DNA of 64,000 nt from a virus, in the IMG/VR virus record IMGVR_UViG_3300030108_001677, positions 22,383-86,382 of that record, one strand, 5' to 3'. The translations under genes were made by a program, and so were the position numbers. Shown one piece after another: positions 50,213 through 64,000 of this stretch (the first letter of the stretch is position 1; every line of letters starts with the position of its first letter). The notes beneath the pieces are model-generated. The model saw only the letters and a list, made by a program, of their open reading frames with translations. It ran no database searches and was not told the origin of the DNA.

Positions 50213-50216
50213 GTTA

Positions 50217-51140
50217 TCACCGGCCAATTTGTTTTCTTAGTAAGATGTGTTCTATCGAATTGTGAATACGCTCGGCTGATGCAAATTTCAATTGTTGCGG
50301 TTGCATTCCAGCCGCACGCATAGCCATATTTTGGTTTGCGAGATTATATCGATCTGTTTGCTCTTGACTTTGCCGGTTAGCCCTTTGTCTTGCACCATAT
50401 CCGGTTTGACCCATATTCGCTGTCAATCCCATTGACAATACATCAGCAACCTTTCCGCCCAATGAACGGTTCTTCATCCATGATTGCTGGTCGCCTCCCT
50501 TGCCTCTTGCCAGTGCGGCGGCATCGGCACCAAAGGCCATTTGATTAGCGGCATTTTGCATTTGATTGCCCCCTGCGGCTGGTGCTGGTGCGGGTGCTGG
50601 ATTTTGTGCTGGTGGTGCTGGATTTTGTGCTGGTGGTGCTGGTGCGGGTGCTGGATTTTGACCACCTACTGGCACAGGACCAATACCCGGAATGTGTCGC
50701 ATCTGTTGTGCTGGTGGTGCTGGTGCGGGTGCTGGTGCGGGTGCTGGGTTTTGTGCTGGTTGGTTCTGTGCTGGTTGATTTTGACCTGCGGCTTGAGGCG
50801 GTGCTAATGCGCCTTGTGCGGCTATATTTTGGCTGGCTGTCGCCAAGTTTTGCCTTTTGTTAGCCATATCTTGAACATAATCCGGATTAGCGGCTTGAGC
50901 ATCGGGTGTCATAGCATCAAAATCTCTTTGGTCTTTGGCAGTGGCCTTTATTTCTTTTCTTGCCGCTTGACCTGCTTTTATGTCGGCACCAATGTTACGC
51001 ACACCTTCCATAAATTTTTGCCCTCCGCCCGCTAAATAATTGTAAGCATCGGAAATACGGCCTTTTTCTAACCCTTCTCGCTCGGCTATCATTCGTGCCC
51101 TTGCGAGCCTATCTGCGCTAAATTCATTATGCCTTCTCAT
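50217..51140 (-). CDS. Low-complexity A/Q/P/N-rich protein
   Basis: QNPAPAPAP repeats; coupled overlap with the upstream gene. Confidence 0.75.
   Translation of the reverse strand: MRRHNEFSADRLARARMIAEREGLEKGRISDAYNYLAGGGQKFMEGVRNIGADIKAGQAARKEIKATAKDQRDFDAMTPDAQAANPDYVQDMANKRQNLATASQNIAAQGALAPPQAAGQNQPAQNQPAQNPAPAPAPAPAPPAQQMRHIPGIGPVPVGGQNPAPAPAPPAQNPAPPAQNPAPAPAPAAGGNQMQNAANQMAFGADAAALARGKGGDQQSWMKNRSLGGKVADVLSMGLTANMGQTGYGARQRANRQSQEQTDRYNLANQNMAMRAAGMQPQQLKFASAERIHNSIEHILLRKQIGR
50575..50785. repeat. Imperfect coding tandem repeats (QNPAP/APAP)
   Basis: Repeated gctggtgcgggtgctgg and ggattttgtgctggtggt units. Confidence 0.85.
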
Positions 51141-53089
51141 TGGAACACCACCTTTACTACTTGTATAACATCTAATGGAACATCCATAGATTTAGACATC
51201 TCACGCCAGTCGCCCCTACTATTTAGTATAGCCACCACATCGGAAACAGGGCGATTTACTACACCTGCCATCATAGCAAGATCGGTAGCACTGGACTTTT
51301 GCATGGGAGTATGTGGTATTGCTTTGACAATGCTTTCATCCTGTAAAGCCAACTGGCACTGGACTTGTTCAAGCATTCCCTCTATGTCCTCTTTTCCAAA
51401 GATATTACCGAGTCGGCCAGCCCCCCTACCAGTTAGATATGCTAACTTATCTGCCATTCCTCTCCAACCCTGTCTAAATCTTGGCGGTCCGTCTTGCCTG
51501 TCAACCCCAGCCTGTGGCATTTGAAAAGCGTTTAGGCGATTATTGGGCATTTCCGGTGGAATATTGGGGGGAATCTGTGGTGCTGGTGGTGGTGGTGGCG
51601 GTTGTTCCAATGGAACAGGGGGTGGTGGTTGTTCCAATGGAACAGGGGGTGGTGGTGGCGGTAGTGGTTCGGCTGGGGGTTGTGGTGGTCTTGGCTGTTC
51701 AGCACGCCTTTCAGCCCTTTGTTGAGCCTGTTCTATGACTTGTTCCTGTGGTGGTTGCACTACCTCACCTTGTGGTGGTGCTGGTTGTTGCGGAACCTCC
51801 GGTTGTAATCTATTGCCTAATGGCTGAATACCGGGGAATTGCTGTTGAAGATATTTGATGTGCCCGCTAACAAGCCTATCAGCCCCCGCCCTACCTGTGC
51901 CAAGCCGCATAGCCGTTTCCATGTCGGGTGCCTCACGCCCACTTCCTTCGTCATAGTATTGACCAACAATATGCTCATGCAGTTTTGGCAAATAATATCT
52001 TTTGTTAGCAAATGAATTAGCATACAAATCTTTGCCTCTTGCATTATTGAAATTTTCAAACCATGTTGAATACCCCTCCATTGGAGTTTGGGGCATTTGA
52101 ACATCGCCAACATTTTGCTGTGCCTCCACTGCTTGTTGGGCAACATCGGGGTTCTCGGCAACCGCCCCTTGAGCAAGCGCATCTTGTCGTCTTACCCCAT
52201 ATATTTGTGAGATGTCATATCGGTTGAATGGTGTATGTTTGCTTAGAACAGGATGGTTTAACCAAGCATTCTTTACCATATCAGCAGTAACGGGTTGCCC
52301 TGTGCGCTGGGCTTCTTGTGCTAAACCACGCATCAAATCAACACTGTGTTTGTATGCTTCGTGATTTACATACAAACCATTTGGCCTTACCTTACCTGCG
52401 TCAATGCTTTTGTTGGTTTTACCTTTGTGACCCATTTGTTCTCGGACATGTTTCAATCCTTCATGATATGGTCTATTCCAAGATTCAGCCATCAAGTTTT
52501 CTTGATCTCGGTTGCCTACACGCAATCGTGGTATGCCCTGTGCATCATACTGCCACGGTGTTTCATTCCTTTGAGGACCAAATACACCGTCACGCCATTC
52601 GGGTGCTAATACTGCTTGACCCATATCCATAGAAAACGGCATAGGTAAATCCATTGGTATTTTGTCAAGACCTTTACCGGTAAGTGCCGCCTCTTGTCGC
52701 CTTTGGTCGTATAGTGCGTTTTGCACTTCAACGGCTTTGTTGATGTGTGCTGAACCTATGTTGATTGCTTTTTTCAATGCCGCTTCGTATGCTGGCATCA
52801 TTCCTTCTTGTGGTCCGGCCAATATTATTGCGGCCTCTTGCATTGTCAAGTGTTCGGGATCTGATGGGTCGGCATTGTATATCGCTTCATACACAGCATC
52901 GGCTTCAACGCCCACTAAGTGCGAACCTGCAATATCTTGTTCGGCCATAGGATAATTTGTCAAGCCATTAGGTCCAAGATTCGCAATCAACCCATTAATT
53001 AGAGCATCAAAATCATACATGCCCATACCTTTGGCGATATGGACTGTGCATGTGTCAAGTATAGCCCACGGATTGCGAAGTAATGTCAT
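51137..53089 (-). CDS. 650-aa protein with polyproline tract
   Basis: PPPPPPVPLEQPPPPVPLEQPPPPPP; ATGA overlaps at both ends. Confidence 0.75.
   Translation of the reverse strand: MTLLRNPWAILDTCTVHIAKGMGMYDFDALINGLIANLGPNGLTNYPMAEQDIAGSHLVGVEADAVYEAIYNADPSDPEHLTMQEAAIILAGPQEGMMPAYEAALKKAINIGSAHINKAVEVQNALYDQRRQEAALTGKGLDKIPMDLPMPFSMDMGQAVLAPEWRDGVFGPQRNETPWQYDAQGIPRLRVGNRDQENLMAESWNRPYHEGLKHVREQMGHKGKTNKSIDAGKVRPNGLYVNHEAYKHSVDLMRGLAQEAQRTGQPVTADMVKNAWLNHPVLSKHTPFNRYDISQIYGVRRQDALAQGAVAENPDVAQQAVEAQQNVGDVQMPQTPMEGYSTWFENFNNARGKDLYANSFANKRYYLPKLHEHIVGQYYDEGSGREAPDMETAMRLGTGRAGADRLVSGHIKYLQQQFPGIQPLGNRLQPEVPQQPAPPQGEVVQPPQEQVIEQAQQRAERRAEQPRPPQPPAEPLPPPPPPVPLEQPPPPVPLEQPPPPPPAPQIPPNIPPEMPNNRLNAFQMPQAGVDRQDGPPRFRQGWRGMADKLAYLTGRGAGRLGNIFGKEDIEGMLEQVQCQLALQDESIVKAIPHTPMQKSSATDLAMMAGVVNRPVSDVVAILNSRGDWREMSKSMDVPLDVIQVVKVVFQ
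51583..51665. repeat. 27-bp coding duplication within a polyproline tract
   Basis: ggttgttccaatggaacagggggtggt occurs twice. Confidence 0.85.
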
Positions 53090-54726
53090 CGCTTTCCAGC
53101 CCCCGCACCTGCTACTGGCAAGAGCGAAGTATCTTCAAATTTCCAACCTTTTAGATTTTCAGTGGCACCCGTTGGGGCACTGTTTTTATCTTCGCTGGCT
53201 TGGTTGCCACGCTTGGCCTCCGCACCTAACTCCGGTGTTGCTTTAGTCAACTTCTCAACTGCCGCCAACAATTTTTTCAAATCCCTCTTTAGTGATTGTA
53301 ATTCGTTTATCTTAAAACCGCTAAGTTTTACACCTCGACTCAATAGACTTGATTTCGCTAACGGTTCTCCGCCCAGTGCATCGTGAAGAAGCACCCCTTC
53401 GCTTTCAGCCGTCTTTGGCCTCACGAATTTAGTGCCCCTGCTACCTGCTGGGCTTGATGGTAATTTTGTTCCTGTTCCAATAGTTTGGACTCTTTCACCA
53501 GTGATACCTCTTGTATCAGCGTGAGCCGATAGTCCTCTTGGCAACGCACCCATTTGCCTACGGAATTTTTCAGCCGCTAATTTTCTTTGGTATGCAACAG
53601 GGTCACGCAACCTCAAAGGCATGTCTTTTGCTCTTGGATTACCACTGAACATTCTTCGTGGTGCGAATGCTTGTTGTTTGGTGTAGCGTTGAAGATTTTG
53701 TTCGGCTGATGCGGCACGCCTTTTTGTCTTACTGTATGGTTGACGGCTTGCCTCTTTCTTGCCTTGTTTCATCCTACGCCTTCTTTCACGCTTGCCTTTT
53801 TTCTTGGCCTTTGCTTCTTCTTCTTCGGATTCTTCATCTTCTTCATACTTACGCCCACGCTTCTTACGCTTGGCTTTGAGTATGTCCGAAAGCAAAACAG
53901 GATCGGCTGACTTCGGTAAGTTTTTGTTCCAATCGGGTGCTACACCTATTGGAGTCGGAACAAACCATTTGAAATCGTCTTTATGATAACCGCCTAATCC
54001 GTGTTGAGCGTGTTCAACAATGCCTTCACGGGTTATTTTCTCGTCTTTAGGGTCAATCTTACCTTTTGCATCCCCAGCCGCTTGTTCTATGAATGGTTGG
54101 CCTGTTGGAGTTATAGCAATATCTGTAAGCATGAATTGATTACTTGTTTTGCGCTGTTCGGGATCCATTTCAAAGTAATCGTCTTGTAATCTTTCAGCCA
54201 TCTCATCCTCTAAATTTTCCCGCATTTCATCAATGGTGGGAATATCATCATCATCGTCTTTCATCACAGTCCAAGCATCTTCAAACGCATCTTCACTGCG
54301 ACCAAATATCATACCCGGACCTTCCCTGCGAATAGAACCTGCTTGTCGCCCCTGTGAAATGCCAATACCCGTGCTATCCATGTCAATACCCATGCCAGTT
54401 TCTTTGAAAGCATCTTCACCCACCTTCATTGGTGTGCTACTTAGAGTATCAGCAATCTTTTCCGGCTTGATTGAGATATGCGGCATTTCGCCTTTCATTT
54501 CGTCAAGTGCCTTCTTTCGCCTTTTCTCCCTATCCATTTGTTCCATTGTTTCTTCGGATGCGGCACCATATTGGCTAACATGAGATAAGCCATCGGAGTT
54601 TTCATTGGCGTTCACATCGTAATCGCCTAACATCTCACGGGGTCTAAACCCACCTGTAAATTCTTGAACCCGTATGGATTCTTCACCTACATTTCTTCGT
54701 GGGTTAGCCATTGGCATGTATATCAC
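53086..54726 (-). CDS. 546-aa charged protein with acidic and basic blocks
   Basis: KAKRKKRGRKYEEDEESEEEE; internal tag AFEDAWTVMK. Confidence 0.75.
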   Translation of the reverse strand: MIYMPMANPRRNVGEESIRVQEFTGGFRPREMLGDYDVNANENSDGLSHVSQYGAASEETMEQMDREKRRKKALDEMKGEMPHISIKPEKIADTLSSTPMKVGEDAFKETGMGIDMDSTGIGISQGRQAGSIRREGPGMIFGRSEDAFEDAWTVMKDDDDDIPTIDEMRENLEDEMAERLQDDYFEMDPEQRKTSNQFMLTDIAITPTGQPFIEQAAGDAKGKIDPKDEKITREGIVEHAQHGLGGYHKDDFKWFVPTPIGVAPDWNKNLPKSADPVLLSDILKAKRKKRGRKYEEDEESEEEEAKAKKKGKRERRRRMKQGKKEASRQPYSKTKRRAASAEQNLQRYTKQQAFAPRRMFSGNPRAKDMPLRLRDPVAYQRKLAAEKFRRQMGALPRGLSAHADTRGITGERVQTIGTGTKLPSSPAGSRGTKFVRPKTAESEGVLLHDALGGEPLAKSSLLSRGVKLSGFKINELQSLKRDLKKLLAAVEKLTKATPELGAEAKRGNQASEDKNSAPTGATENLKGWKFEDTSLLPVAGAGAGKR

Positions 54727-55184
54727 TCTAAGTTATTAATTCCGTATTTGGCGGTTTCGGGGTCAAAGTCCTCTTGTTCTTTGGGTTTCTTCATTGGATT
54801 ATCCCCATACATTCGCTTCAAGCGAGCCAACAAATCCGGATCTCTTGGCATACCAGCGTGCATGGCTGGTGGGTTGGGTTTTACATTCAACACCCCGTCA
54901 AGCGCACCATCCTTTGGTAAGCGTGGGTTCATTTTCAAAATTGAAAAACCAGCGTTGATTGCCTTGTCGTTTGTTGATTTTAATTTGATGTAAGCCTTTC
55001 CTTCATCTAAGGCTTCTAACATACTGCTTTCCCTTTTATCATCTCTAATAGAATCTAAAGCAACAGGGTTCCTTGCACAATTTATTGCTTGCACATCATG
55101 GATTGGCATTCGGCATTCTTCATGTGGGTTAGCCCCACAGGCTGGGCAATTTGGCGACATATCTCCTTTCATCAGCAATTCCAC
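54723..55184 (-). CDS. Hypothetical protein with N-terminal zinc-finger-like motif
   Basis: CPACGA.P...C....H; internal AINAGFSILK. Confidence 0.65.
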   Translation of the reverse strand: MELLMKGDMSPNCPACGANPHEECRMPIHDVQAINCARNPVALDSIRDDKRESSMLEALDEGKAYIKLKSTNDKAINAGFSILKMNPRLPKDGALDGVLNVKPNPPAMHAGMPRDPDLLARLKRMYGDNPMKKPKEQEDFDPETAKYGINNLE

Positions 55185-55801
55185 CTTTTCAACGCCGCAC
55201 CTTTCGGTGTCAATTTACCGCCTTTACTGGTCGGTCCTTTTACTCCGCCCATTCTTGCACAGAATGACTTTCGCCTCTTTGCCTTCTTTGAGCCGGGTTT
55301 GAGTTTGCTTGGTTTGGTTGTGACGGGTGGTTTCAAGTTTGAGCCTTGCTCTCTTTTGAATTTGGCACGACCCTTTGCATTTAGACCACCTTTGCGGCTA
55401 TGTCTATTTGGGTTGTAGCCATGAAATGGTTTTTCTTTCTTACCTTTCAGTAATTCCTCACGAATCACGAAGGCTTTTGCCAGCGTTACACAATTATCAC
55501 AATCACACATCTTTACCATTGTTGGTTTCCCTCCTACTCCCTGCGGTTTGCTTCTCTTTCTCCTTGTCATAGCCTTCTTTTCTTTAGCACTTATCCCTTT
55601 GGTTGTTTTTGGAGTCTTGTCGCTAACCTTCTTTGATGGTCGGCATTTAGGGTAGCCTCTTGATGATGTGTCGGCATCACTACGACCACACGGAGGATGT
55701 TTGCCATCTTTGTCTTTTCGGCCAACATCAACCCACTTTTCTTTGAACCACCGCCTCAAATCCTTTGAGAGCATGTAAGATACAGGAGTTTCAATCATCA
55801 T
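55172..55801 (-). CDS. Two-domain basic phage protein (DUF5872-like plus DUF6321-like)
   Basis: LRRWFKEKWVD...PCGRS...YPKCRP and GGLNAKGRA...NLKPPV...RRKSFCARM...ALKRWNC, motifs familiar from marine phage proteins; start 55801 with GGTGA SD. Confidence 0.7.
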   Translation of the reverse strand: MMIETPVSYMLSKDLRRWFKEKWVDVGRKDKDGKHPPCGRSDADTSSRGYPKCRPSKKVSDKTPKTTKGISAKEKKAMTRRKRSKPQGVGGKPTMVKMCDCDNCVTLAKAFVIREELLKGKKEKPFHGYNPNRHSRKGGLNAKGRAKFKREQGSNLKPPVTTKPSKLKPGSKKAKRRKSFCARMGGVKGPTSKGGKLTPKGAALKRWNC

Positions 55802-56022
55802 TTCACCCCAGCCCAAGCGTCACAAGTGTGATCTGCACGACAAACAAAGTCATACCATTCACAATAACCAGTCATTGGATTATCAGTTTTAGAAACATCC
55901 CACGCTTTACAGTTACCACAGCACTTGTTATTTGTGCATTTGCGGTAATTGGGGGCATCCTCTTTTGCTTTGAGGATAGCCCAAGCGTGGTCGAATGCTT
56001 CTTGATTAATCATCGGACTCAC
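55798..56022 (-). CDS. Small four-Cys HiPIP-like protein
   Basis: PNY...CGNCKAW...GYC...HTCDAW after the tag AFDHAWAILK. Confidence 0.55.
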   Translation of the reverse strand: MSPMINQEAFDHAWAILKAKEDAPNYRKCTNNKCCGNCKAWDVSKTDNPMTGYCEWYDFVCRADHTCDAWAGVK

Positions 56023-56279
56023 TTCTTGCTTTTCTTACTCTTTTTCTTCCAGCCGCCGCCTTTGGATTTATACCATTTAGCCGCCCAGCCATTAGCGTAT
56101 GCTGACGGATATACTTTGAATTTAGACCTTGCTTTGCTTTTGGCTTGTGCCCACAAACTTGGGTTTGTTGGGGCGTTCTCGCCTTTGTCCATTCCGCCTT
56201 TTACTACATCCCATCCGGCTAAAAATGCGGAATCGCCAATAGCCGTCATGGTAACTGTTCTATCACTTTTGTCATTCAT
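56019..56279 (-). CDS. Small basic phage protein (PSAY...WYKSKGG family, DUF5872-like)
   Basis: PTNPSLW..AK..A..KFKVYPSAYANGW..KWYKSKGGGW. Confidence 0.7.
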   Translation of the reverse strand: MNDKSDRTVTMTAIGDSAFLAGWDVVKGGMDKGENAPTNPSLWAQAKSKARSKFKVYPSAYANGWAAKWYKSKGGGWKKKSKKSKK

Positions 56280-56704: not shown

Positions 56705-57396
56705 TCCATCATCTCCTTGAACGCATCATCGTATTGACCCTCTCCACCACCAATTCCCATAGCCCTCATGGCTCTTAGATTGTCGGCATAATTCATATCC
56801 AGTCTGTGGTTATGCACACGGATCGCTTCTTCTAATGGTGTTTCTTCTGTGCCCATTAGTCCGGCTAAATCATCCATAGTTATGGAAAATCCGCCCATAG
56901 GTATCATACCCATTCTCCTACCTGTTTCATTAGGATTTACACCTTCCAAGTGAATATCCATTTCATAAGGATTTTCAGCATCAATGACCCCTCCAACACC
57001 TTCGGAATTTACCATGTAAAATTCACCATTGGGTGCTTGCACTACAAACTGATCTCCATGTGAAACTCTTGGCTTTGACGACCATCCATCATCATCACGG
57101 TATGGTGTAGCCATATCTATCATAGGGTAGCCATCTTCATCAACATACCCAGCACGCAAGTGTTTGTCATATTGTTCATCAGTCATTCCCATATCCGCAA
57201 ATGGGTGTCGCATTCGTGGCACTTCGTATGTTCCTTCATTCATCTGTGCCAATACATTATCGTGGAACCTTTGGGCAAATTCTTGGAGTCTATCGGGGTC
57301 AAGCCTACGCATCATAATGTTTGACGGCTCTCTATTCCCATGAACACCCCTGCGTTTCAGTAAAGTCCAACCAATATCAAACGCCTTATTGTCCAT
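56701..57396 (-). CDS. Hypothetical acidic M/G/D-rich protein with N-terminal tag
   Basis: Probable start MDNKAFDIGWTLLK at 57396. Confidence 0.7.
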   Translation of the reverse strand: MDNKAFDIGWTLLKRRGVHGNREPSNIMMRRLDPDRLQEFAQRFHDNVLAQMNEGTYEVPRMRHPFADMGMTDEQYDKHLRAGYVDEDGYPMIDMATPYRDDDGWSSKPRVSHGDQFVVQAPNGEFYMVNSEGVGGVIDAENPYEMDIHLEGVNPNETGRRMGMIPMGGFSITMDDLAGLMGTEETPLEEAIRVHNHRLDMNYADNLRAMRAMGIGGGEGQYDDAFKEMME

Positions 57397-58099
57397 CTTC
57401 AAGCACCCCCGCATCGGCCAATGCCTTACGCATAACACGCCATTCTTCGGGCGATTTCTCGGAAAAATGTGCTTGTATGACAGTGAGGACACTGACCTGC
57501 TCGTTAGAACCTACGCTGTCTAACTTTTCAAGGTATTCCCCAATCTCACCCAAAGTGTCACGAATTTCACGGTGAAGTTTTACTGCCGTGTCAAGACCCT
57601 TGTAATCAAGTGCGCCAGTTTCCTGTTGTTCCTCACGCATCAAATCAACATGGTCATTGAACAAAGTATTCAAACGCTGTAAATTGTTTTCAGTTTGGCG
57701 CATAGCGGTTCTTGCACTATCTATTCGTGCTGGCAACATCTCCACAGACACTTCACGCTGAATAATTGGTGTGGTGTGATTTTCCATGTGTTGTGATAAA
57801 GCAGTGGTTGTGATGTCTAACTCGGTAGCCATATCTTCAATTGAAACAATGTGATTAAGCACAGCCTGTTCGATGTTGGCTCTTTCGGGGTGTGTGCATA
57901 CAGGGCATTCGCTGTTGCTATTGTTGTGGTAATCACCCGAATGCCTACGCATGTGCCTATGTGCAGTGCCCTCCGGCCATTCTTGACTACGATCTAATTC
58001 TTCGACCTCAAGCGTTCCTAAACGAATCATTCTTTCGTAATTATCACGCTGTGGGTGCTGACAGAATGGACAATTGGCTCTTGTCCTACGCCCCGTCAT
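57386..58099 (-). CDS. Putative terminase small subunit / DNA-binding protein with tandem Zn-HTH repeats
   Basis: Two repeats CP.C.HP.R...E...HM..H followed by a helical oligomerisation-like region; upstream of the packaging cluster. Confidence 0.5.
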   Translation of the reverse strand: MTGRRTRANCPFCQHPQRDNYERMIRLGTLEVEELDRSQEWPEGTAHRHMRRHSGDYHNNSNSECPVCTHPERANIEQAVLNHIVSIEDMATELDITTTALSQHMENHTTPIIQREVSVEMLPARIDSARTAMRQTENNLQRLNTLFNDHVDLMREEQQETGALDYKGLDTAVKLHREIRDTLGEIGEYLEKLDSVGSNEQVSVLTVIQAHFSEKSPEEWRVMRKALADAGVLEDGQ

Positions 58100-58121: not shown

Positions 58122-58331
58122 TTATTTCATTTTTGACTTTTTTGGTGTGTGAACACCGCAGTAAGCAGTTCCACGCTTTGGGTGGTTTTTACAAGGCTCT
58201 CCGTTCTTTTTTGTTGCTTGACAAAGTGTGGGTGCTTCGTGCTTAACCACTGGTCTTTTGGGTATATCCACTACTGCATACGCTTGTGGTGGCGGGGCTA
58301 CTATTCGCCCGTTAATACCGAAAGGAAGCAT
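58122..58331 (-). CDS. Small CCCH zinc-finger protein
   Basis: CQATKKNGEPCKN......YCGVH. Confidence 0.65.
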   Translation of the reverse strand: MLPFGINGRIVAPPPQAYAVVDIPKRPVVKHEAPTLCQATKKNGEPCKNHPKRGTAYCGVHTPKKSKMK

Positions 58332-58566
58332 ATTGACGGATCGCTATTGTTCCTGTCAATATCAGTCCGAAAAACATAGCCATCACTGCACTTGTTCCCA
58401 AAGCCGGACCTTTCCATACTAATACCACCAAAGAAAACAATATGAATGCAATAATGTAAATCATGGTTGCACTTTCCACAATCATTTTCTTTGGACTCAA
58501 GATGTCCAGTGTTGCCGATGAAATTGAAACCTCTCCTTGAACAGCCGACTCGTCTTTTTCTCCCAT
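58312..58566 (-). CDS. Small protein with two transmembrane helices
   Basis: MIYIIAFILFSLVVLVW and AVMAMFFGLILTGTIAI. Confidence 0.75.
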   Translation of the reverse strand: MGEKDESAVQGEVSISSATLDILSPKKMIVESATMIYIIAFILFSLVVLVWKGPALGTSAVMAMFFGLILTGTIAIRQYASFRY

Positions 58567-58570
58567 ATTA

Positions 58571-59218
58571 TCACAATCCTACTGCCGCACCTTTAGCGGC
58601 CATATTTACACCTTGCCCCATAGTGGCACCAAAGCCACCGTTTTGTTGCATTTGATTACCTATGATTCCTCCAAGCAGGTTGCCAAAGAAACCGGGCTGA
58701 TTTTGTTGCATGTTATTCATCATCATGCCTTGCTGGTGTGCGGCAAGGAACATTTGTAATTGTTGCTGGTTTGCATTCAATACATTCTGTGCGGCACTTT
58801 GGGCTGTTTGTAGTGTCAAAGCAAGATTTTCTTGTGACATGGTAGCCAATTCGCTTGGCAACGAACCAGCATCAAGACTTAATTTTTCACCCTCTATCTT
58901 GAATGAAACATTGTTGAAAAATTCTTTTATTGACAACTGCACAATCTCACCAACCAAATTTAGAACCAACGCCATATTTTGTGATACTACAAAGTTTGAA
59001 ACTGGGTCATACATGGCTAACAATTGGGATGTTGCCACGATAGGATCGTTGGCGGCCTGTTGCATCATTGGGTTCTGTGCTTGTTGCATCATGCCCATAG
59101 CACCCATGTTGCCCATTCCCATCATATTGTTTCCATACGCTTGATTCTGTGCTGTTACCGTTGGCGCACCAAATTGTTGTGCTGGTTGCGCTTTATTTCC
59201 AAATCCAAATAATCCCAT
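58571..59218 (-). CDS. Q/M/N/G-rich protein with low-complexity termini and helical core
   Basis: MGLFGFG start; NNMMGMGNMGAMGMMQQ; GFFGNLLGGII. Confidence 0.8.
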   Translation of the reverse strand: MGLFGFGNKAQPAQQFGAPTVTAQNQAYGNNMMGMGNMGAMGMMQQAQNPMMQQAANDPIVATSQLLAMYDPVSNFVVSQNMALVLNLVGEIVQLSIKEFFNNVSFKIEGEKLSLDAGSLPSELATMSQENLALTLQTAQSAAQNVLNANQQQLQMFLAAHQQGMMMNNMQQNQPGFFGNLLGGIIGNQMQQNGGFGATMGQGVNMAAKGAAVGL

Positions 59219-59223
59219 GTTCG

Positions 59224-60132
59224 TTACCCCTGTTTCACTGCCATTGGTTCCTGTGGCGTGATTTGTTGCTGTTGCGTTTGTGGCGCAATATTTACCATAC
59301 TACCTTGATTCATTTGCTCTAACTGCAAGGCTCTCATATCAAATGTGACCGTGACCAAATCAGCAACCCCCGTAACCGGATTAACATGCTGATTCAATAC
59401 TACTCCTTTACTGTATTGTGCATCTTGTTGTATCATTTGAAAGAAAGGTGCATATTTCGCTAAAGACTCCGGTGTTGACCTATTCTTTGCTGATGATTTA
59501 CCACTAAGACCCGGCACTTTCAAGAATCGTGTGCCCTTTGCCACTATCTTACCAAAACCTTCATCCTCCATTTCATGTTCCTCAAGCATACAGCGAAGTG
59601 TGTGGTATATGTGCAAATGTGCTGGACAAAGTGTGCTATTCATTTCATCTCCGTGATCTCCGTGCGTGCGGGCATGAGGCTTTCTTGCTTGACCCGTATC
59701 TTCATCGAACCAGTATATGTCGGCTAACGACAAACCAGTTTTCTCGTCAACAATGTGGTTGTATGCGTTATCACCTTCAAGGAAACGCCTAACATCAACA
59801 CCACAACAAGCACATTCGTGTGCGGCATTATATCTGTAAATCTTGAATAGACCGAGATTATATGATGGTGGGCGTAGTGCCTTTCTCATCTTTTTGATAT
59901 TCTTTTTTCTTGCCTTTCGTGGATTCTTAGGATTGGTTACTAACTTCAACTCAACTGTTGGAATTAGTGCTTCACCCTCGACTCCACCTGTTGAACCAGC
60001 ACTCGCCATCTCGGCTCTTTGTTGTGCTTTCAACATGTCCACTGAAATACCAGTGTGCATGGCAAGGACATTCAACTCATCATCGGATAGGCCGTTCAAA
60101 GACATGCCCCCGCCAAATGGATTTATACGCAT
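59224..60132 (-). CDS. Hypothetical protein with putative zinc-binding motif
   Basis: HECACCG...LCPAH; basic K/R patch; GGTGAG SD. Confidence 0.75.
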   Translation of the reverse strand: MRINPFGGGMSLNGLSDDELNVLAMHTGISVDMLKAQQRAEMASAGSTGGVEGEALIPTVELKLVTNPKNPRKARKKNIKKMRKALRPPSYNLGLFKIYRYNAAHECACCGVDVRRFLEGDNAYNHIVDEKTGLSLADIYWFDEDTGQARKPHARTHGDHGDEMNSTLCPAHLHIYHTLRCMLEEHEMEDEGFGKIVAKGTRFLKVPGLSGKSSAKNRSTPESLAKYAPFFQMIQQDAQYSKGVVLNQHVNPVTGVADLVTVTFDMRALQLEQMNQGSMVNIAPQTQQQQITPQEPMAVKQG

Positions 60133-60187
60133 ACTTCTCTCACCGCCTTGACCCTGTGAGGACTGACAACATCAAAAAGATTCCCCC

Positions 60188-60916
60188 TCAAATTAAATTT
60201 ATTGTGTGGATAACTGCTTCTTCAACACGCAAACCAAATTGCGCTGATACAGCCTCCACATTTGTAGCCACTGCTGACTTTCGTAATCTTCGCATATCCT
60301 CTTGAAATGGTGCTACCATAGGGTGTTGCCGTTTGAGTCCAGCATCCCATATCTTTTGCGATTGAGCATCCCACCACACATCCATCTTGTTCAACAGCAA
60401 ACAAACAACACTGGGTTTGTATTTCTTGGCTTTTCTTTTCATACTACGACTAAATGTAGTGGGATATTTGTGATTCACAATAATGTCCGTAAGATACTTG
60501 AAACCAGCAACAGCCTCTTGCATGGCTGGCTGTGACCATGCTATTCTATCATCAACAACAAAGAAAATTATGTTCGCTTTACGATCTATCATATCCTCCG
60601 CCCACATATTCCAATATTGACTTTGACCGCCAATGTCGGTGGATGTAATCGGCACCCTATCTCCTTTGTAACGCACTTGTTTTTTGGTGGAATGAGGCAT
60701 TTGAAACTTGCCTCGTTTTACTGGGTGGGTTGTTCGCAACTCCACCGGTATTGGGTCAATATCACCCGGCACAGTAAGATACTGGTCAAGTGTCGTTTTA
60801 CCTGCCAATGAAGGACCATATATTGCTACTTTGTGTGGGCGCAATATTCTATACACATAGGTTGCTATTTGTGCTGACCCCATTAGCAAGTGACCAGCAA
60901 ACATCCATGTTGCCAT
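60188..60916 (-). CDS. Ras-superfamily small GTPase, Arf-like
   Basis: G1 GPSLAGKTT, G3 DIGGQ followed by YWNMW, IIFFVVD, G4 LLLNKMD, G5 SAQFG.RVEEA; N-terminal hydrophobic/amphipathic extension. Confidence 0.85.
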   Translation of the reverse strand: MATWMFAGHLLMGSAQIATYVYRILRPHKVAIYGPSLAGKTTLDQYLTVPGDIDPIPVELRTTHPVKRGKFQMPHSTKKQVRYKGDRVPITSTDIGGQSQYWNMWAEDMIDRKANIIFFVVDDRIAWSQPAMQEAVAGFKYLTDIIVNHKYPTTFSRSMKRKAKKYKPSVVCLLLNKMDVWWDAQSQKIWDAGLKRQHPMVAPFQEDMRRLRKSAVATNVEAVSAQFGLRVEEAVIHTINLI

Positions 60917-60922
60917 TCACAA

Positions 60923-61144
60923 TCACTCGCCCCTGATCCATTTCCATACACTATGTGGGCTAATATCTCCCCATACTTCTAAGCCTAACAAAACGAAAAA
61001 TGACAAACTCACACCAATAAAAAACGCCAATATAGATTTTACAGTCCATGCCGCCCTCTCCATGCGCCTATCGTAAGCGTTTTCAGCAAGTATCGCTGAC
61101 ATGGCTTCCGCCTGTCTTTCCTGTGCTGTGTTAAAAGGCCACAT
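60923..61144 (-). CDS. Small single-pass membrane protein
   Basis: Start MWPFN at 61144 (AGGTGG SD); ILAFFIGVSLSFFVLLGL. Confidence 0.75.
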   Translation of the reverse strand: MWPFNTAQERQAEAMSAILAENAYDRRMERAAWTVKSILAFFIGVSLSFFVLLGLEVWGDISPHSVWKWIRGE

Positions 61145-61157
61145 GCTACTGCACCAC

Positions 61158-61628
61158 CTATTGCTGTTCACTATCGGATTTAGGTTCTTCTCCGTCATTC
61201 GGTAAGCCAAATGTTTGTTGTTGTGGGTTAGTTACCTGTTGCCAACTGGTTTGTTTATTATACATCTCAATATCCTGTTGCATTTGATAATCTTTTCTCA
61301 TACGGCGTTGTTGTAGTCGCATTTGATTTCGATGCCACTTATCATAACGCCCTTCTTGTGCAAATTCAGCACGCAGGGCAAGTGAGTCACGGATTCCACC
61401 TACATGGAATAGCACCATAGCCACACAAAGGAAACCAAATGCAATTAACCCGTATTGTAATCCCATTTCAGCCGGACTTGCTTCGGGTAAATACCAATCC
61501 AAATGAGAAACGGTTACTGAAACACCAGTCAAAAGCGATTGCCATAGCAACATGGCAATTAGGTTGATGTCAATACGGTTCCCATCATCGGGCATTTGCC
61601 ACGGTGGTATTCTTTGTGGTTGGTTCAT
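61158..61628 (-). CDS. Two-TM membrane protein with Q/R-rich coiled-coil tail
   Basis: Start MNQPQ at 61628; LIAMLLWQSLLTGVSV and YGLIAFGFLCVAMVLF. Confidence 0.75.
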   Translation of the reverse strand: MNQPQRIPPWQMPDDGNRIDINLIAMLLWQSLLTGVSVTVSHLDWYLPEASPAEMGLQYGLIAFGFLCVAMVLFHVGGIRDSLALRAEFAQEGRYDKWHRNQMRLQQRRMRKDYQMQQDIEMYNKQTSWQQVTNPQQQTFGLPNDGEEPKSDSEQQ

Positions 61629-61629
61629 T

Positions 61630-61767
61630 TTATTCCGCCCCCTTCTTTTCTTCAAAATATTTCTTTAGCACGAAATTGACGAATGAGGATTTAGACTCAC
61701 GCCCCCTTTCCGCTTCTAATTTTGCGAACAGATCGTCCGGCATAACTACTGAAACATGTCGGCTCAT
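61630..61767 (-). CDS. Ribbon-helix-helix (CopG/Arc-like) transcription regulator, 45 aa (not in ORF track)
   Basis: Read manually: MSRHVSVVMPDDLFAKLEAERGRESKSSFVNFVLKKYFEEKKGAE, with an alternating beta strand, PD.L..LE and S.S.FV..L..Y. Confidence 0.8.
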   Translation of the reverse strand: MSRHVSVVMPDDLFAKLEAERGRESKSSFVNFVLKKYFEEKKGAE

Positions 61768-61793
61768 GTATAAATCCCAGTCCTGTGAAGGCT

Positions 61794-61802
61794 ATGAAGG
61801 TT
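61794..61802 (-). promoter_or_regulatory. Putative promoter motif AACCTTCAT upstream of the RHH/GTPase operon
   Basis: About 27 nt upstream of ATG 61767; recurrent motif. Confidence 0.45.
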
Positions 61803-61804
61803 GT

Positions 61805-61813
61805 GATTAAATA
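61805..61813 (+). promoter_or_regulatory. TATA-like box for the leaderless 61836 gene
   Basis: GATTAAATA centred about 26 nt upstream of the ATG; no obvious SD. Confidence 0.4.
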
Positions 61814-61835: not shown

Positions 61836-62348
61836 ATGCCATCTGCAAACATGCCCGATGCAGTAAAAGCCATGCGCTCATATTATTTTGTAATAAACGC
61901 AATACCAAACAGCCCCGAAGTTTTATCCTCATGGATTCAAAGGCATACTGATGAGGCATTAGCGGCTGACTTTGATTACAGGGCGGCAATCGCTGTTTTA
62001 CATCATTTTAACCATCCGTTGTATTCAAACACATCAAACCACCCATCGGGCACTACATCGTGGTGTAACCTAATGACTGGTGCTGAAACCATATTACAAG
62101 ACGAACAGGCTTGGATAAATGACCAGTTAGAAATCGCTAACATCACACGACCACAGCGTTTGTTTGATTCCGACATTACATGGTTGAACGCTTGGGCAAC
62201 GGCTAACGGTATTCCACAAAACCTTGAAACCGCTTTCTTAGTCAATATGCTAATTCAACAATTGCGAACATGTGAGGGTAGCAACGGTGCTACTGGTGCT
62301 GGTGGTATATCGCATACTGAACGCAATCCGCCAACAAACTTACCTTAG
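61836..62348 (+). CDS. Hypothetical protein (only plus-strand gene in the late region)
   Basis: 170-aa ORF filling the gap; TATA upstream; its stop overlaps the convergent gene. Confidence 0.7.
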   Translation: MPSANMPDAVKAMRSYYFVINAIPNSPEVLSSWIQRHTDEALAADFDYRAAIAVLHHFNHPLYSNTSNHPSGTTSWCNLMTGAETILQDEQAWINDQLEIANITRPQRLFDSDITWLNAWATANGIPQNLETAFLVNMLIQQLRTCEGSNGATGAGGISHTERNPPTNLP

Positions 62349-63469
62349 TCACGCATTTGCTCAAATATATTTTCTAAAGCCATTTGCCTCATGGTTGGAG
62401 GTAACTTGGAAAGTGCCCTTTGATTTTCAAGATAGACACTCCTACCTCCCCTTCGGAAACATGCACGACAACCCATCTCACCAGTTAATGGATCTCTAAC
62501 AAGATTGCACTTCTTTGGATTACCGGGTATGGTTGCCCTGCAAATGGTATCGGGATTGCTTGGTATCTTGTCAAACCCTGTCATACCCAACATTGGTTTT
62601 CCATCAGCACCCAATAACCTCGACAATTCTCCGACATTGATTGTCCTATTTGGCACATCTTTACTGGTAAAGGTAATATCGGTGTTGTCTTTTACCTGTT
62701 CGGGCAACATCCTACCCGGTAGCGACATTTGTATTGCTAAGTTTGGTGCAATAGCATCCGGCTCAAATCCTCTTGCTTCTAAGAAGTCATACAAATATGG
62801 TATTTGTCTTGTGGACATCCACATGTCCACCATCGGATTCCTACGGGCTATCTGATCTGCTAAAGCAAACGCACCCGAACCTCTTGCATTTCCAGCCGAA
62901 AATACTCTTGCGTTTATGTCGTCTGTGGGTCTTTTGCGGGCTAACATGGCCGATGGTGTCAAGGTTTCAGCGTATGCCGCACCTATCTGTTCGGGATAAT
63001 TCAACATCCTGTCAAGATTACGCCATTGTGATATTTGCACAGTAGGATAACCATAGTTACCCTTACAAGCATAACAATGACCACAAGCCATGTTAGGATT
63101 TTCTCTATCGGCAAATATACACGCTCTTGGTGGAGAGTCCATTATAGAAGGTCCGGGCATCTTGTTGGGTTCACCATAGTGTCCAAACTTAGCGGGTTTT
63201 ATACTTTGGAGATTTGCTGGCAAATCCCCTCTAATATCCTCAAAAATTGGCAAATCATAGTCCATCTCAAGCGGGATGTCAATTAAACGGGGAACACCAC
63301 CGGGATTCAAATAAGCATCCACCTTTTCCGGATTCGCTTCAATGAATCTTGCAGGGTTTATTTTGACTGGGGGGTTTCGTCTAAACTTATCCCAAGCAAG
63401 CATATCATCTTCATCGCCTACTGCTTTGATTAGCAATTTGCCTAACTGATGGGTTATAGCATCAATCAA
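62345..63469 (-). CDS. Gp88-like (radical-SAM-related, Cys-rich) protein
   Basis: NKMPG...P..AC...ACGHCYA.KG.Y, RVFSAGN, WMSTR, NLAIQMS, C-terminal C...C...CRAC; start TTG 63469 or ATG 63499. Confidence 0.65.
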   Translation of the reverse strand: MIDAITHQLGKLLIKAVGDEDDMLAWDKFRRNPPVKINPARFIEANPEKVDAYLNPGGVPRLIDIPLEMDYDLPIFEDIRGDLPANLQSIKPAKFGHYGEPNKMPGPSIMDSPPRACIFADRENPNMACGHCYACKGNYGYPTVQISQWRNLDRMLNYPEQIGAAYAETLTPSAMLARKRPTDDINARVFSAGNARGSGAFALADQIARRNPMVDMWMSTRQIPYLYDFLEARGFEPDAIAPNLAIQMSLPGRMLPEQVKDNTDITFTSKDVPNRTINVGELSRLLGADGKPMLGMTGFDKIPSNPDTICRATIPGNPKKCNLVRDPLTGEMGCRACFRRGGRSVYLENQRALSKLPPTMRQMALENIFEQMRD

Positions 63470-64000
63470 AGAAAAGCCCCCTGTTTCAGCACAGCCCATC
63501 CACCTTCAAAGGCGTTTTGGGGTTCCGACATCATAAAGTCCATTAAATCGGTTTGCTTGTTCTCCTTCGGCAAGAAACGACCATACCCATGATTTTGTAG
63601 TAATTCATTGATTGAATGACCATCCATATTGGGTATGTTAGCCACACCGACCATCTCTAACTTATCTCCACGAAGTGATGGGTTAGCACCGCTATTGTCC
63701 GGCCTGTTTATGATTGTAGTGTCCAACCCGATGTCTTTGTATTGTTCAATGGGCGCAATACTGTCAAAAGCCATGACTGGTTGGCCTTCTTGTATTCTTT
63801 CTTCTAATTGCCTCAATGTTGGTCTTGGGTCAAACCCAACACCGTATGAACCCGGCTCACCCGAATAGGGCGGGTCGTTTATCAGCAACTTGTTGTTGTC
63901 AATATCCCATTCGGCCAGTGCTTCGGCACCATCTCCCTGTCTAACATTTACATTTTGTAATGGATCTCGGTAATTTAACAGGCTTTCCGAAGTGGGTAAG
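63466..64000 (-). CDS. C-terminal part of a second N6-adenine DNA methyltransferase (truncated by window edge)
   Basis: Frame is open from the window end: ...NVNVRQGDG...LLINDPPYSG (motif IV); ends with QTDLMDFM and AFEGGWAVLK. Confidence 0.65.
   Translation of the reverse strand, partial: LPTSESLLNYRDPLQNVNVRQGDGAEALAEWDIDNNKLLINDPPYSGEPGSYGVGFDPRPTLRQLEERIQEGQPVMAFDSIAPIEQYKDIGLDTTIINRPDNSGANPSLRGDKLEMVGVANIPNMDGHSINELLQNHGYGRFLPKENKQTDLMDFMMSEPQNAFEGGWAVLKQGAFL

Follow-up and report, generated by a model that had tools for sequence, protein, structure and literature searches.

Several described systems come close to the viral locus considered here. The Arf family of small GTPases (Arf, Arl, Sar1, SRβ, and the Asgard protein GerdArfR1, PDB 8oum/8oun) has the G1-G5 motifs, a DxGGQ-type G3 followed by a conserved Trp, and an N-terminal amphipathic or hydrophobic membrane helix. 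Giant viruses encode small GTPases too, acquired recently from Rab/Ras genes of eukaryotes. The lysis cassette of phage lambda opens the late operon, ahead of the terminase genes, and the haloarchaeal virus HVTV-1, a relative of the virus described here, lyses its host. Head-tailed archaeal viruses lyse cells, and the holins of archaeal viruses remain elusive, according to one review (PMC10791045). In Euryarchaeota, three proteins drive the formation of membrane vesicles: the GTPase ArvA, which has an amphipathic helix, a Zn-ribbon protein and one further partner (PMC10927574).

The window, a stretch of 64,000 nucleotides of viral DNA, carries a GTPase block on its minus strand at 57.4-61.8 kb. 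This block is a gene cassette conserved in the late module of magroviruses, the tailed viruses that infect Marine Group II/Poseidoniales archaea. From its gene content, the source virus is a magrovirus-like tailed virus. Its hallmark genes are PolB, RFC, TerL, portal, protease and MCP, the nearest relatives of its MCP belong to haloarchaeal viruses (31%), and the same block lies on a 106-kb contig in a Poseidoniales single-cell genome, all in agreement with the archaeal tailed virus proposed in the preliminary description. The carriers of the block infect Marine Group II archaea and are abundant in the ocean, and the module may be their means of acting on the host membrane, perhaps for leaving the cell. 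We found no mention of a GTPase in the main texts of the magrovirus and archaeal tailed-virus papers examined.

The seven genes first assigned to the block were all found there in minus-strand orientation, with coordinates equal or close to those originally proposed. From 5′ to 3′ they encode an RHH-like protein, a 2-TM protein, a 1-TM protein, the GTPase, a Cys/His protein, a Q/N/M/G-rich protein and a second 2-TM protein. The packing is as tight as had been suggested, with intergenic gaps of 1, 13, 6, 55, 5 and 4 nt. The sole gap above 13 nt is the 55-nt spacer (60133..60187, minus strand), which has a T5 run directly past the GTPase stop and might act as an attenuator or terminator. From the RHH gene to TerL, this spacer excepted, genes overlap or are separated by 22 nt at most.

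Related viruses keep the block. It was retained in 16/16 viral loci anchored on the GTPase, one truncated contig excepted, and when the Cys/His gene served as an independent anchor, the GTPase gene lay directly upstream of it in all 75 loci that had upstream sequence. The order persists in relatives whose GTPases are 35-38% identical. A third lineage, sampled at 80 loci and with a GTPase 30% identical, has the order TM, TM, GTPase, Cys/His, Q-rich between the MCP and tail-tube genes. Because the five-gene order is intact at this different site, the core relocates as a unit inside the late module. The co-occurrence in relatives on which the preliminary description had made its proposal depend was thus found by both anchors. 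The seven genes do not form one indivisible unit, as it had supposed; the RHH, second 2-TM and 237-aa genes are lineage-specific. As aligned across lineages, the core is five genes: the 2-TM protein, the 1-TM protein, the Arf-like GTPase, the Cys/His protein and the Q/N/M/G-rich protein. The lineage of the window adds the RHH gene with its motif, the small second 2-TM protein and a downstream C2H2/HTH coiled-coil protein. No characterised non-membrane system matches the module.

The third core gene (60188..60916, minus strand) encodes the Arf-like small GTPase, 242 aa long, which was analysed by alignments, an AF2 model and a PDB profile search. Its motifs include G1 GPSLAGKTT, G3 DIGGQ then the conserved Trp, G4 NKMD and G5 SAQ. 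The G1, G3 and G4 residues are invariant in alignments of a family reaching down to 19% identity, and the catalytic Gln of G3 is swapped for D, H, E or F in some members. As read from these alignments, the protein is an intact nucleotide switch, complete from G1 to G5. The best PDB profile match was 8oun, an Asgard Arf-type GTPase (E 5.6e-6), followed by Arl8 and Arl6. Among the 50 PDB entries listed after VIA re-alignment (Z 11.7-12.9), 46 were Arf/Arl/Sar/ArfR/SRβ and 4 were Rag/Gtr, with Arf-family and Rag Z-scores within about 1 of each other. The G-domain fold resembles that of the Arf family with Z up to 12.9 and an rmsd of 2.5 Å over 130 residues. By profile and predicted structure, the viral GTPase is closest to Arf/Arl/Sar/SRβ, and calling it Arf-like was justified. 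Unlike the Arf family, it is longer, carries a basic insert between G3 and G4, is encoded by a prokaryotic virus, and scores 14.7 bits against Pfam Arf, below the threshold of 22.3. Pfam Arf matches 12/25 family members (best E 1.9e-15) and is above threshold in distant ones. No ArfGAP- or Sec7-type partner was found with Pfam.

AF2 predicts an N-terminal amphipathic helix in the GTPase at about residues 3-25, in a model with a pLDDT of 67.6 whose switch regions are poorly modelled (pLDDT <50, residues 41-97). The helix has a muH of 0.38-0.67, which at most 0.08 of shuffles reach for 24/25 sequences. Distant members have a truly hydrophobic segment in its place, and a hydrophobic or amphipathic segment is conserved at this end throughout the family, a predicted feature shared with Arf proteins. 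Relatives of the GTPase are few, 82 at E ≤0.001 among 1.84 billion representatives, with no recognisable cellular Arf among the 82. A profile of the viral GTPase had a sole match in 151 Poseidoniales genomes, a viral contig in 1 genome, and found no host homologue. The Rab/Ras/Ran-like GTPases of giant viruses, which are virus-encoded too, are the nearest viral structures in BFVD, where no entry matches at E ≤0.001. Unlike them, the magrovirus family is without a close cellular counterpart and has dedicated membrane partners.

Three small TM proteins are predicted around the GTPase by a Kyte-Doolittle scan, which upholds the view that it is flanked by membrane proteins. The first core gene (61158..61628, minus strand) encodes a 2-TM protein of 156 aa, of which about the last 75 form a basic tail rich in Q. 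Orthologue alignment places its start at ATG 61628 rather than TTG 61655. The gene is present in 16/16 loci, a TM ORF occupies the equivalent position in distant lineages, and the protein has no family match. The second core gene (60923..61144, minus strand) encodes the 1-TM protein, whose N-terminal part is charged; here orthologues support ATG 61144, giving 73 aa and not 95. Its positional counterparts in other lineages are 73-90 aa long, some of them below the hydropathy threshold. Cross-lineage profile comparison gave a best E of 0.0015 for the 2-TM protein and a marginal 0.1 for the 1-TM protein, and the homology of both between lineages is positional only. The accessory second 2-TM protein (58312..58566, minus strand; 84 aa) has a short basic C-terminus, is absent from the third lineage, and is holin-like solely in size and topology. 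None of the TM proteins of the block matches a holin family.

The Cys/His protein, the product of the fourth core gene (59224..60132, minus strand; 302 aa), is the most conserved of the block. In cross-lineage alignments C107, C169 and H172 are invariant over three lineages, with a Cx2C...Cx2H arrangement in two, and the protein probably binds zinc. Other features are a patch of basic residues, KARKK, and a C-terminus rich in Q. Its 794 homologous clusters are all unnamed and none has a Pfam match, and the predicted model gave no usable fold (pLDDT 59, structural Z ≤5). The fifth core gene (58571..59218, minus strand) encodes a 215-aa protein of 46% Q+N+M+G with five FG dipeptides. Its N terminus reads MGLFG, with Gly2 invariant in the three-lineage alignment, and is followed by a helical domain in the centre and a hydrophobic C-terminal tail of small residues. 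Judged crudely by composition, it is at the expected position in 69/77 loci; no family or Atlas match was found.

Like the Haloferax volcanii ArvABC operon (PMC10927574), the viral module combines a small GTPase bearing an N-terminal helix with a Zn-type protein and a third protein. ArvA and the viral GTPase are similar along 41 columns of the P-loop/switch I stretch (hhalign probability 95), with no similarity beyond them, and G3 is DTPG in ArvA and DIGGQ in the viral protein. Neither of the other two pairs is related: the probability is 4 for the Cys/His protein against ArvC and 0.06 for the Q-rich protein against ArvB. ArvABC, unlike the viral module, is without integral membrane partners. 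The viral GTPase is no homologue of the ArvABC vesiculation system.

A Pfam scan of 95 proteins, covering ORFs of less than about 90 aa outside the block only in part, found no holin, endolysin or ESCRT family, and the preliminary description had recognised none either. There is no wall- or S-layer-degrading enzyme nearby. The module resembles phage holin lysis cassettes in having small TM proteins, in being a compact, relocatable unit in the late module and, in the window, in lying ahead of packaging genes. It differs from them in lacking an endolysin, spanin or holin family match, and in containing a GTPase together with Zn-type and low-complexity proteins, a combination for which we know of no described lysis cassette.

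We favor the explanation that the block is a membrane-acting late cassette for virion release, and put the probability of this whole account at roughly 0.4. In the GTP form, the GTPase would dock on the host cytoplasmic membrane through its amphipathic helix, with the two small membrane proteins serving as anchors or receptors. Once docked, the GTPase would draw in the Cys/His and low-complexity Q-rich proteins to build an assembly on the membrane. Its most likely purpose would be the timing and execution of a late membrane event that disrupts or remodels the host membrane for virion release. Such a cassette would replace the holin-endolysin cassette of bacterial tailed phages, and in the lineage of the window the core may stand under its own RHH-controlled promoter/operator. 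That the five core genes act together at the membrane is likely; that they act late is somewhat favored. Egress as the output of the module is the leading reading, at less than even odds. Counted in its favor are the Arf-like switch, the membrane partners, the conserved gene coupling, the late context, the lack of another candidate lysis gene, the ArvA precedent and the positional analogy to lambda. The module was not found in HVTV-1, which lyses its host without it, so the module is no general requirement for the egress of archaeal tailed viruses.

The genes downstream of the block bear on another explanation. The block had been placed immediately upstream of a putative TerS and head genes. 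The supposed TerS (57386..58099, minus strand) is a 237-aa protein of DNA-binding type that matches no TerS family and has no PDB match. In alignment it begins with a tandem pair of CxxC...HxxxH units, both of which include an HTH-like stretch; a coiled coil comes next, and the C-terminal domain is conserved. Its only matches are weak ones of coiled-coil/SMC type. Its gene follows the block in 77/79 loci of the two lineages nearer the window and in 0/80 of the third. TerL lies at 46799-48235, some 9 kb farther along, and the head genes do not directly adjoin the block either. The module could instead be a membrane-bound platform for assembly or packaging, an aid to morphogenesis and not a lysis device. 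The GTPase and TM proteins would mark a membrane site, and the Q-rich/FG and Cys/His proteins would form a condensate-like scaffold concentrating proheads, DNA, terminase or tail parts. This would suit the position of the core between MCP/head and tail genes in the third lineage, the run in the window from the core through the C2H2/HTH coiled-coil protein to TerL without sizeable gaps, the low-complexity Q-rich regions in three module proteins, and a core gene set that is universal in every relative examined. We consider it unlikely, as related haloviruses build similar capsids without the module and its proteins have no similarity to scaffold or chaperone families. Tailed viruses are not known to need a membrane for assembly.

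The control region raises the possibility of an earlier role. The promoter-like motif noted before, TAATCACAACCTTCATA (61793..61809, minus strand), is indeed present, and most of 11 aligned loci retain it ahead of their RHH gene. It lies about 25-45 nt upstream of the RHH start, overlaps a 9-bp tandem direct repeat (CCTTCAnAG twice), and may be a promoter or the RHH operator. The window has a single exact copy; another site, differing at 3 positions, is no more than chance would give (at least 2 matches in 8/100 shuffles). The RHH-like DNA-binding protein, encoded by the first gene of the block (61630..61767, minus strand; 45 aa), is a lineage-specific accessory matching Pfam RHH_5 at E 0.021 and 15 bits, under the 26-bit cut-off. 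Its gene is present in 16/16 IMG/VR loci and in L020 and L021, and is absent from the two lineages farther away; in one of these an AbrB/MazE-like gene of 65-67 aa lies within the block instead. A divergent conserved gene (61836..62348, plus strand; 170 aa) shares a 68-nt control region with the block. It has tblastn matches in 9/16 IMG/VR loci and L021, and no Pfam or PADLOC match. Just upstream of the block are GP88-like and methyltransferase genes; because genes of these types are often expressed early, the block might have a role before the late phase. In one study, contigs from two RNA-library runs overlap the block, at a depth of 2-6 at which DNA carry-over is possible.

The module could serve host take-over or superinfection exclusion, as a membrane complex that modifies the cell envelope early in infection. 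It might, for instance, keep a second virus from entering, interfere with division or shift the output of vesicles, with the GTPase a regulator or mimic of a host switch. Exclusion systems typically use small membrane proteins, and the RHH-type control region, divergent partner gene and upstream neighbors would fit. ArvB was missing from all 61 Poseidoniales genomes searched, so a vesiculation switch supplied by the virus would be new to the cell. Exclusion genes are usually variable accessories, however, and this module occurs with an unchanged gene order at every locus examined, sits among structural genes in one lineage, has no PADLOC match, and has no homologue to mimic in the 151 host-group genomes. 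We regard such a role as improbable. Least likely is a soluble GTPase that stands beside unrelated TM genes and controls translation, ribosome use, DNA packaging or transcription via the Cys/His and C2H2 proteins: Pfam MMR_HSR1, a ribosome-binding GTPase family, matches as many GTPase family members as Arf (12/25, weakly, best E 3.4e-4), the first Foldseek matches are Der/EngA, the N-terminal helix in the window is under the TM hydropathy threshold, and several proteins of the block are of nucleic-acid-binding type, but two TM genes lie directly upstream of the GTPase in three lineages and move with it, its N-terminal segment is conserved across the family, and the top re-aligned structures are Arf family, not Era or Der.

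The block also has a further member beyond the seven genes first listed. This gene (58122..58331, minus strand), found in 8/16 loci, encodes a variable, basic, Cys-rich protein of 69 aa with weak matches, below cut-off, to DUF5763 and zf-primase.

The Arf-like small GTPase of this magrovirus-like genome (242 aa, 60188-60916) is obligatorily linked to two small membrane proteins (156 and 73 aa), a Cys/His protein (302 aa) and a low-complexity Q/N/M/G-rich protein (215 aa), and this five-gene core lies inside late gene blocks in three viral lineages. Within the window, the core belongs to a minus-strand gene run at 57.4-61.8 kb, which also includes an RHH gene at its 5' end and genes for 84-, 69- and 237-aa proteins at its 3' end. 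The run is seen in the ORF listing of 55-64 kb much as the preliminary description had it. Comparison with orthologues corrected two starts, to an ATG at 61628 for the 156-aa protein and an ATG at 61144 for the 73-aa protein. With these starts the gaps in the block are 1, 13, 6, 55, 5 and 4 nt, and downstream of it, as far as the TerL gene (46799-48235), there are only overlaps or gaps of at most 22 nt. In Kyte-Doolittle scans the 156-aa and 84-aa proteins each have two predicted transmembrane (TM) helices, and the 73-aa protein has one.

The linkage of these genes was examined in four sets of loci. In 16 IMG/VR loci anchored on the GTPase (63-93% and 45% identity), the RHH gene, both upstream TM genes and the GTPase, Cys/His and Q-rich genes are always present. 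The 84-aa and 237-aa genes occur in 15 of the 16, the missing one being a contig end, and the 69-aa gene in 8. Five genome-collection loci all carry the GTPase, Cys/His and 237-aa genes, and four of them the Q-rich gene (tblastn). The three distant ones among these five, with GTPases of 35-38% identity, have the order TM protein, small protein (below the TM threshold in two of the three), GTPase, 65-67-aa protein, Cys/His protein, Q-rich protein, 2-TM protein and 225-228-aa protein. The 65-67-aa gene between GTPase and Cys/His (L022:3708-3911, L023:1951-2148, L024:9086-9283) is AbrB/MazE-like, its match to Pfam MazE_antitoxin (E 0.006) being below the cut-off. The RHH gene is absent from this lineage, so a different small DNA-binding fold may fill the regulator's role.

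The reverse test was anchored on the Cys/His protein and gave 79 loci, many of them on contigs identical or close to those of the first set. The GTPase gene is directly upstream in all 75 loci with at least 1000 nt of upstream sequence, and 70 of 71 loci have one or more TM ORFs in the 1.3 kb ahead of the GTPase. A Q/N/M/G-rich ORF and a small TM ORF are each found in 69 of 77 loci. The 237-aa family follows the Cys/His gene in 77 of 79; of the two misses, L034 is an artefact of the ORF filter (the gene is on that contig in the GTPase-anchored test) and the L071 contig stops some 670 nt past the Cys/His gene.

A third lineage of 80 loci was found with P0190, a GTPase of 30% identity. The GTPase profile matches all 80 loci, the Cys/His profile 74 and the 237-aa profile none, the 237-aa gene being absent near the module here. 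The order in the six loci inspected is multi-TM protein, 73-76-aa protein, GTPase, Cys/His-like protein and MGLFG/Q-rich protein, with the Cys/His gene next 3' of the GTPase in each. Profiles of the TM proteins did not reach E 0.001 across lineages. In the viral locus L121, the core is placed after the prohead protease, the major capsid protein (MCP) and three small genes, and precedes homologues of the tail-region genes found at 30.9-32.6, 30.2-30.7 and 28.0-30.2 kb of the window. Gene linkage is thus kept among relatives in GTPase-anchored, genome-collection, Cys/His-anchored and third-lineage loci alike. The five-gene core is therefore a cohesive unit that was relocated within the late, morphogenetic part of the genome, and the RHH, 84-aa TM and 237-aa genes are lineage-specific additions.

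By its alignments the GTPase is a conserved nucleotide switch in intact form, and its N-terminus is of membrane type. The motifs are complete (G1 GPSLAGKTT, G3 DIGGQ, G4 NKMD, G5 SAQ). G34, G39, K40, D94, G97, N176 and K177 are invariant in 25 sequences with identities down to 19%, and the switch I stretch IPxExRTxH is conserved. The Arf-type G3/interswitch signature is DxGGQ followed by a conserved aromatic Trp. The window GTPase has this signature (DIGGQSQYWNMW), the family consensus reads DIAGQxQFRNLW, and W105 after G3 is nearly invariant; the G3 Gln is substituted in some members. Conserved as well is a hydrophobic or amphipathic N-terminal segment, predicted in the AF2 model as a helix at residues 3-25 ahead of the G domain. 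Its hydrophobic moment is 0.38-0.67, a value reached by a fraction of at most 0.08 of shuffles for 24 of 25 sequences, and in distant members the N-terminus is plainly a hydrophobic anchor.

The GTPase had been described as Arf-like, and this description stands on the motifs, the PDB profile search and the distant members, but not on the Pfam score of the window protein itself. The best PDB profile match is 8oun (E 5.6e-6), followed by Arl8 and Arl6. The sequence of 8oun is that of 8oum, titled Arf GTPase GerdArfR1 of an Asgard archaeon, and the stretch aligned with it reads DLGGQLHFRNLW. In Pfam all matches of the window protein are sub-threshold (MMR_HSR1 15.8, Arf 14.7, Ras 12 bits), the gathering threshold of Arf (PF00025) being 22.3 bits. 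The distant full-length relatives P0235 (27.2 bits) and P0246 (36.2 bits) exceed that threshold, and also match SRbeta. Among 25 family members, Arf has the best E-value (1.9e-15), and Arf and MMR_HSR1 tie at 12 of 25 (E <=0.05 for Arf). Plain Foldseek on the AF2 model (mean pLDDT 67.6, with a good G-domain core and a poor stretch at residues 41-97 that includes the switch regions) returned generic small GTPases, Der/EngA first. After VIA re-alignment, the best 50 entries listed (Z 11.7-12.9) comprise 46 Arf, Arl, Sar, ArfR or SRbeta and 4 Rag/Gtr structures, the latter less than 1 Z unit from Arf-family rows in a model whose switch regions are unreliable. Since the window protein is under the PF00025 threshold, we call it Arf-like rather than an Arf: it appears to belong to a separate viral family, and by Pfam's criterion it is not a member.

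A single-sequence search found 101 homologous GTPase clusters; the source is a marine metagenome in every case, and the contig is often some 100 kb long. The family is narrow, as only 82 of 1.84 billion representatives match its profile at E <=0.001. The same profile found no host homologue in 151 Poseidoniales genomes, where the sole match was the viral contig of AG-422-I20. The Arf-positive relative P0235 had no match in viral_contigs. A BFVD fold search gave nothing at E <=0.001; the nearest viral structures there are Ras/Rab-type proteins of giant viruses. No tblastn match to the GTPase, Cys/His or 237-aa protein was found in 50,697 phage records, a collection that seems to be without a module-bearing magrovirus.

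The Cys/His protein is the most conserved of the block, with 63% identity where the GTPase has 45%. C107, C169 and H172 are invariant across the three lineages, a Cx2C...Cx2H arrangement is found in two, and there is a basic KARKK patch. It has 794 homologous clusters, every one without a name. Its AF2 model has a pLDDT of 59; a wide VIA search stayed at Z <=5, with only an uninformative likeness of a small N-terminal three-helix part to homeodomains, and a PDB profile search gave no match below E 0.8. Complex prediction of the GTPase (24-242) with the Cys/His protein (1-285), run without controls, scored 0.00 and carries no weight either way. The Q-rich protein (58571-59218) is 46% Q+N+M+G. 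It opens with MGLFG, and its Gly2 is invariant in 14 sequences from three lineages. Further features are FG dipeptides, a helical domain in the centre and a C-terminal tail of small residues that is hydrophobic and without significant amphipathicity. Protein Atlas gave no usable match for the Cys/His or Q-rich protein, and none of the module proteins had a meaningful match in PHROGs or NCBIfam. In each of the three lineages (L121:7410-8123 and relatives included) the Q-rich proteins start MG[LFWI]FG; MWPF opens the 73-aa TM protein, and PF/FG occurs close to the N-terminus of the Cys/His protein. A short N-terminal aromatic motif may be common to these module proteins.

The 237-aa protein (57386-58099) had been put forward as a putative small terminase subunit (TerS). 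No TerS family matched it in Pfam, PHROGs or NCBIfam, no PDB match was below E 0.06, and it lacks similarity to the gene preceding TerL in HVTV-1. It has two tandem CxxC...HxxxH units (invariant at C10, C13, H49, H53 and at C65, C68, H104, H108) that each surround an HTH-like stretch; a coiled coil and a SPEEW C-terminal domain come after them. DNA-binding-type units and coiled-coil-type matches fit the layout of a TerS, but TerL is 9 kb off. Its apparent DNA-binding architecture is one that we could not place in any family. PADLOC matched only this protein, and only by coiled-coil type (LmuB, JetC); a defence-system role for the module was rejected.

The nearest functional precedent, by analogy, is ArvA-ArvB-ArvC of Haloferax volcanii (PMC10927574), where three proteins govern the formation of extracellular vesicles: a small GTPase that has an N-terminal amphipathic helix, one that is SepF-like and one with a Zn-ribbon. 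We recovered ArvABC operons from eight genomes and compared alignments from six by hhalign. ArvA (six sequences) and the viral GTPase are alike over 41 columns only, from the P-loop to switch I. ArvC (DUF2072 Zn-ribbon) is unrelated to the viral Cys/His protein (probability 4), as is ArvB (OapB, PF09846) to the Q-rich protein (probability 0.06), and no ArvB or ArvC family matched beside the viral GTPase in Pfam at E <=1. Homology to ArvABC was therefore rejected, and the likeness is one of design rather than descent. A search for ArvB gave no match in 61 Poseidoniales genomes, while the controls, Haloferax and Methanosarcina, were positive, as were 95 of the 201 genomes in a phylum sample.

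How tailed viruses of archaea leave the cell is an open question; according to a review, the head-tailed ones lyse cells, and holins for them are still elusive (PMC10791045). The scan of 95 genome proteins bears out that holin and endolysin genes are not recognised: neither these proteins nor the block included a cell-wall hydrolase or recognised lysis gene. A holin-endolysin cassette has an adjacent cell-wall hydrolase, whereas the block has none. No holin family in Pfam or PHROGs matched the small TM proteins; the 84-aa protein, with two TM helices and a short basic C-terminus, has a topology that is compatible with a holin and not diagnostic of one.

Timed membrane disruption or remodelling for virion release would be the purpose that we rank first, because the position and mobility of the core resemble those of phage lysis cassettes, because of the lysis without known holins reported in that review, and because Euryarchaeota provide a precedent for a GTPase-driven membrane system. 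The GTPase would cycle on and off the host membrane and nucleate a complex there. We tentatively assign a probability of about 0.3 to a GTPase-timed egress machine, in which the Arf-like switch, anchored by the two membrane proteins, would assemble the zinc and FG-containing Q-rich proteins and open or bud the archaeal membrane to release tailed virions. A membrane-bound assembly platform is the closest rival; the core is followed by tail-region genes in L121. Next is an early modification or exclusion at the cell envelope, a reading that has the membrane proteins on its side and the setting among structural genes in one lineage to contend with. Weakest is the GTPase as a cytoplasmic regulator; for it, no TM helix is predicted in the window protein by the Kyte-Doolittle scan, and against it, the N-terminus is of membrane type.

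Two metatranscriptome runs from one study contained 6-8% of the words sampled. Contigs of 151-320 nt from the RNA runs, at depths of 2-6, fall on the Cys/His gene, the GTPase/Cys-His junction and the junction of the two TM genes; they are too thin to speak for transcription, strand or timing, the libraries may contain DNA, and uncovered parts carry no meaning. The bins 50004-51337 and 53339-54005 reach a summed depth of up to 11,644 in four marine runs, RNA and DNA alike, with loose ends of GGT/GCT-type repeats. This looks like cross-mapping of short, repeat-rich contigs of other organisms on Gly/Ala-rich coding repeats, not expression.

If the egress reading is true, tailed viruses that infect wall-less (S-layer) archaea would have their first defined lysis/egress system, and the module would be a case of Arf-style membrane remodelling in a prokaryotic virus that arose independently of eukaryotic coats and of ArvABC. 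The cassette would also extend small-GTPase membrane switches, so far known from eukaryotic trafficking, Asgard archaea and ArvA vesiculation, to viruses of prokaryotes. The GTPase family bears on the evolution and recruitment of such switches, since it is without a close cellular homologue. Either way, a strictly conserved cassette around an Arf-like GTPase is a concrete, clonable target for the question of archaeal tailed-virus egress, and should egress prove wrong, these globally important viruses still have, in their late region, a membrane-associated module that is universal and calls for an explanation. A few homologues already carry the name 'GTPase SAR1 family protein' from JGI automatic annotation, so the bare identification of a GTPase is not new. 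We found no literature that pairs magroviruses with a GTPase, and the main texts of PMC5434244, PMC11706807, PMC10160649, PMC5332604 and PMC8651126 make no mention of GTPase or GTP; their supplementary gene tables may list one. The five-gene core and its universality seem to be novel, as do the way it relocates as one unit, the fact that it is independent of ArvABC, and its standing as a candidate for the missing membrane or egress device.

The block is preceded by a 68-nt control region 5' of the RHH gene, common to a divergent plus-strand gene for a 170-aa protein (61836-62348). The motif TAATCACAACCTTCATA (61793-61809), with one exact copy in the window, and a 9-bp tandem repeat are kept within this region in most of 11 aligned loci. 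The RHH protein scores 15 bits against the 26-bit cut-off of Pfam RHH_5, with 37 of 45 residues covered, and the tandem direct repeat would fit an RHH operator. The 170-aa gene, present at 35-95% identity in 9 of 16 IMG/VR loci and in L021 of the genome collections and without a Pfam or PADLOC match, may be co-regulated with the RHH gene through the common region. Directly upstream of the control region is a GP88-family gene (62345-63499; Pfam E 5e-11), and beside it an ORF that runs off the window end (63466-64000), whose 177-aa fragment has no Pfam match. The 55-nt spacer 3' of the GTPase stop (60133-60187) is the sole sizeable one in the block and contains a T5 run. It may serve as an archaeal terminator or attenuator and so divide the block into two expression units. 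Small basic genes at 54723-56279, between the module and large genes, match DUF5872 (E 2e-12) and DUF6321 (E 3e-17), and the distant loci L022 and L024 have homologues of them on the upstream side of the module.

The window is the final 64 kb of an 86.4-kb IMG/VR virus record. The virus encodes a family-B DNA polymerase (PolB), an RFC-like clamp loader, TerL, portal, prohead protease and an HK97-type capsid protein, a pattern as described for groups A and B of the magroviruses, a set of viruses counted among the most abundant in the surface ocean (PMC5434244). The closest capsid proteins (31%) are those of the haloarchaeal viruses HVTV-1, HCTV-1 and HCTV-5; the structural operon of HVTV-1 differs in opening with a 220-aa gene, an HNH gene and TerL, without a GTPase module. 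The hosts of magroviruses are uncultured. A Poseidoniales host is directly supported here, since the same block lies on a 106-kb contig (L020) of the single-cell genome 'uncultured Candidatus Poseidoniales archaeon isolate AG-422-I20'. The four further genome-collection loci (L021, L022, L023 and L024) are short contigs in metagenome-assembled genomes labelled Parvibaculum (two), Maricaulis and Promethearchaeati, and are probably binning errors or viral contamination. Elsewhere in the window, a 234-aa plus-strand gene (388-1092) encodes an ERCC4/HhH nuclease, and a 1691-aa protein (16223-21298) has a Laminin_G_3 (concanavalin-like lectin) domain near its C-terminus that fits a receptor-binding tail protein. 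The AG-422-I20 contig (106,262 bases) has the look of a magrovirus genome in full, the sorted cell presumably having been infected, and is a useful host-linked reference for this virus group.
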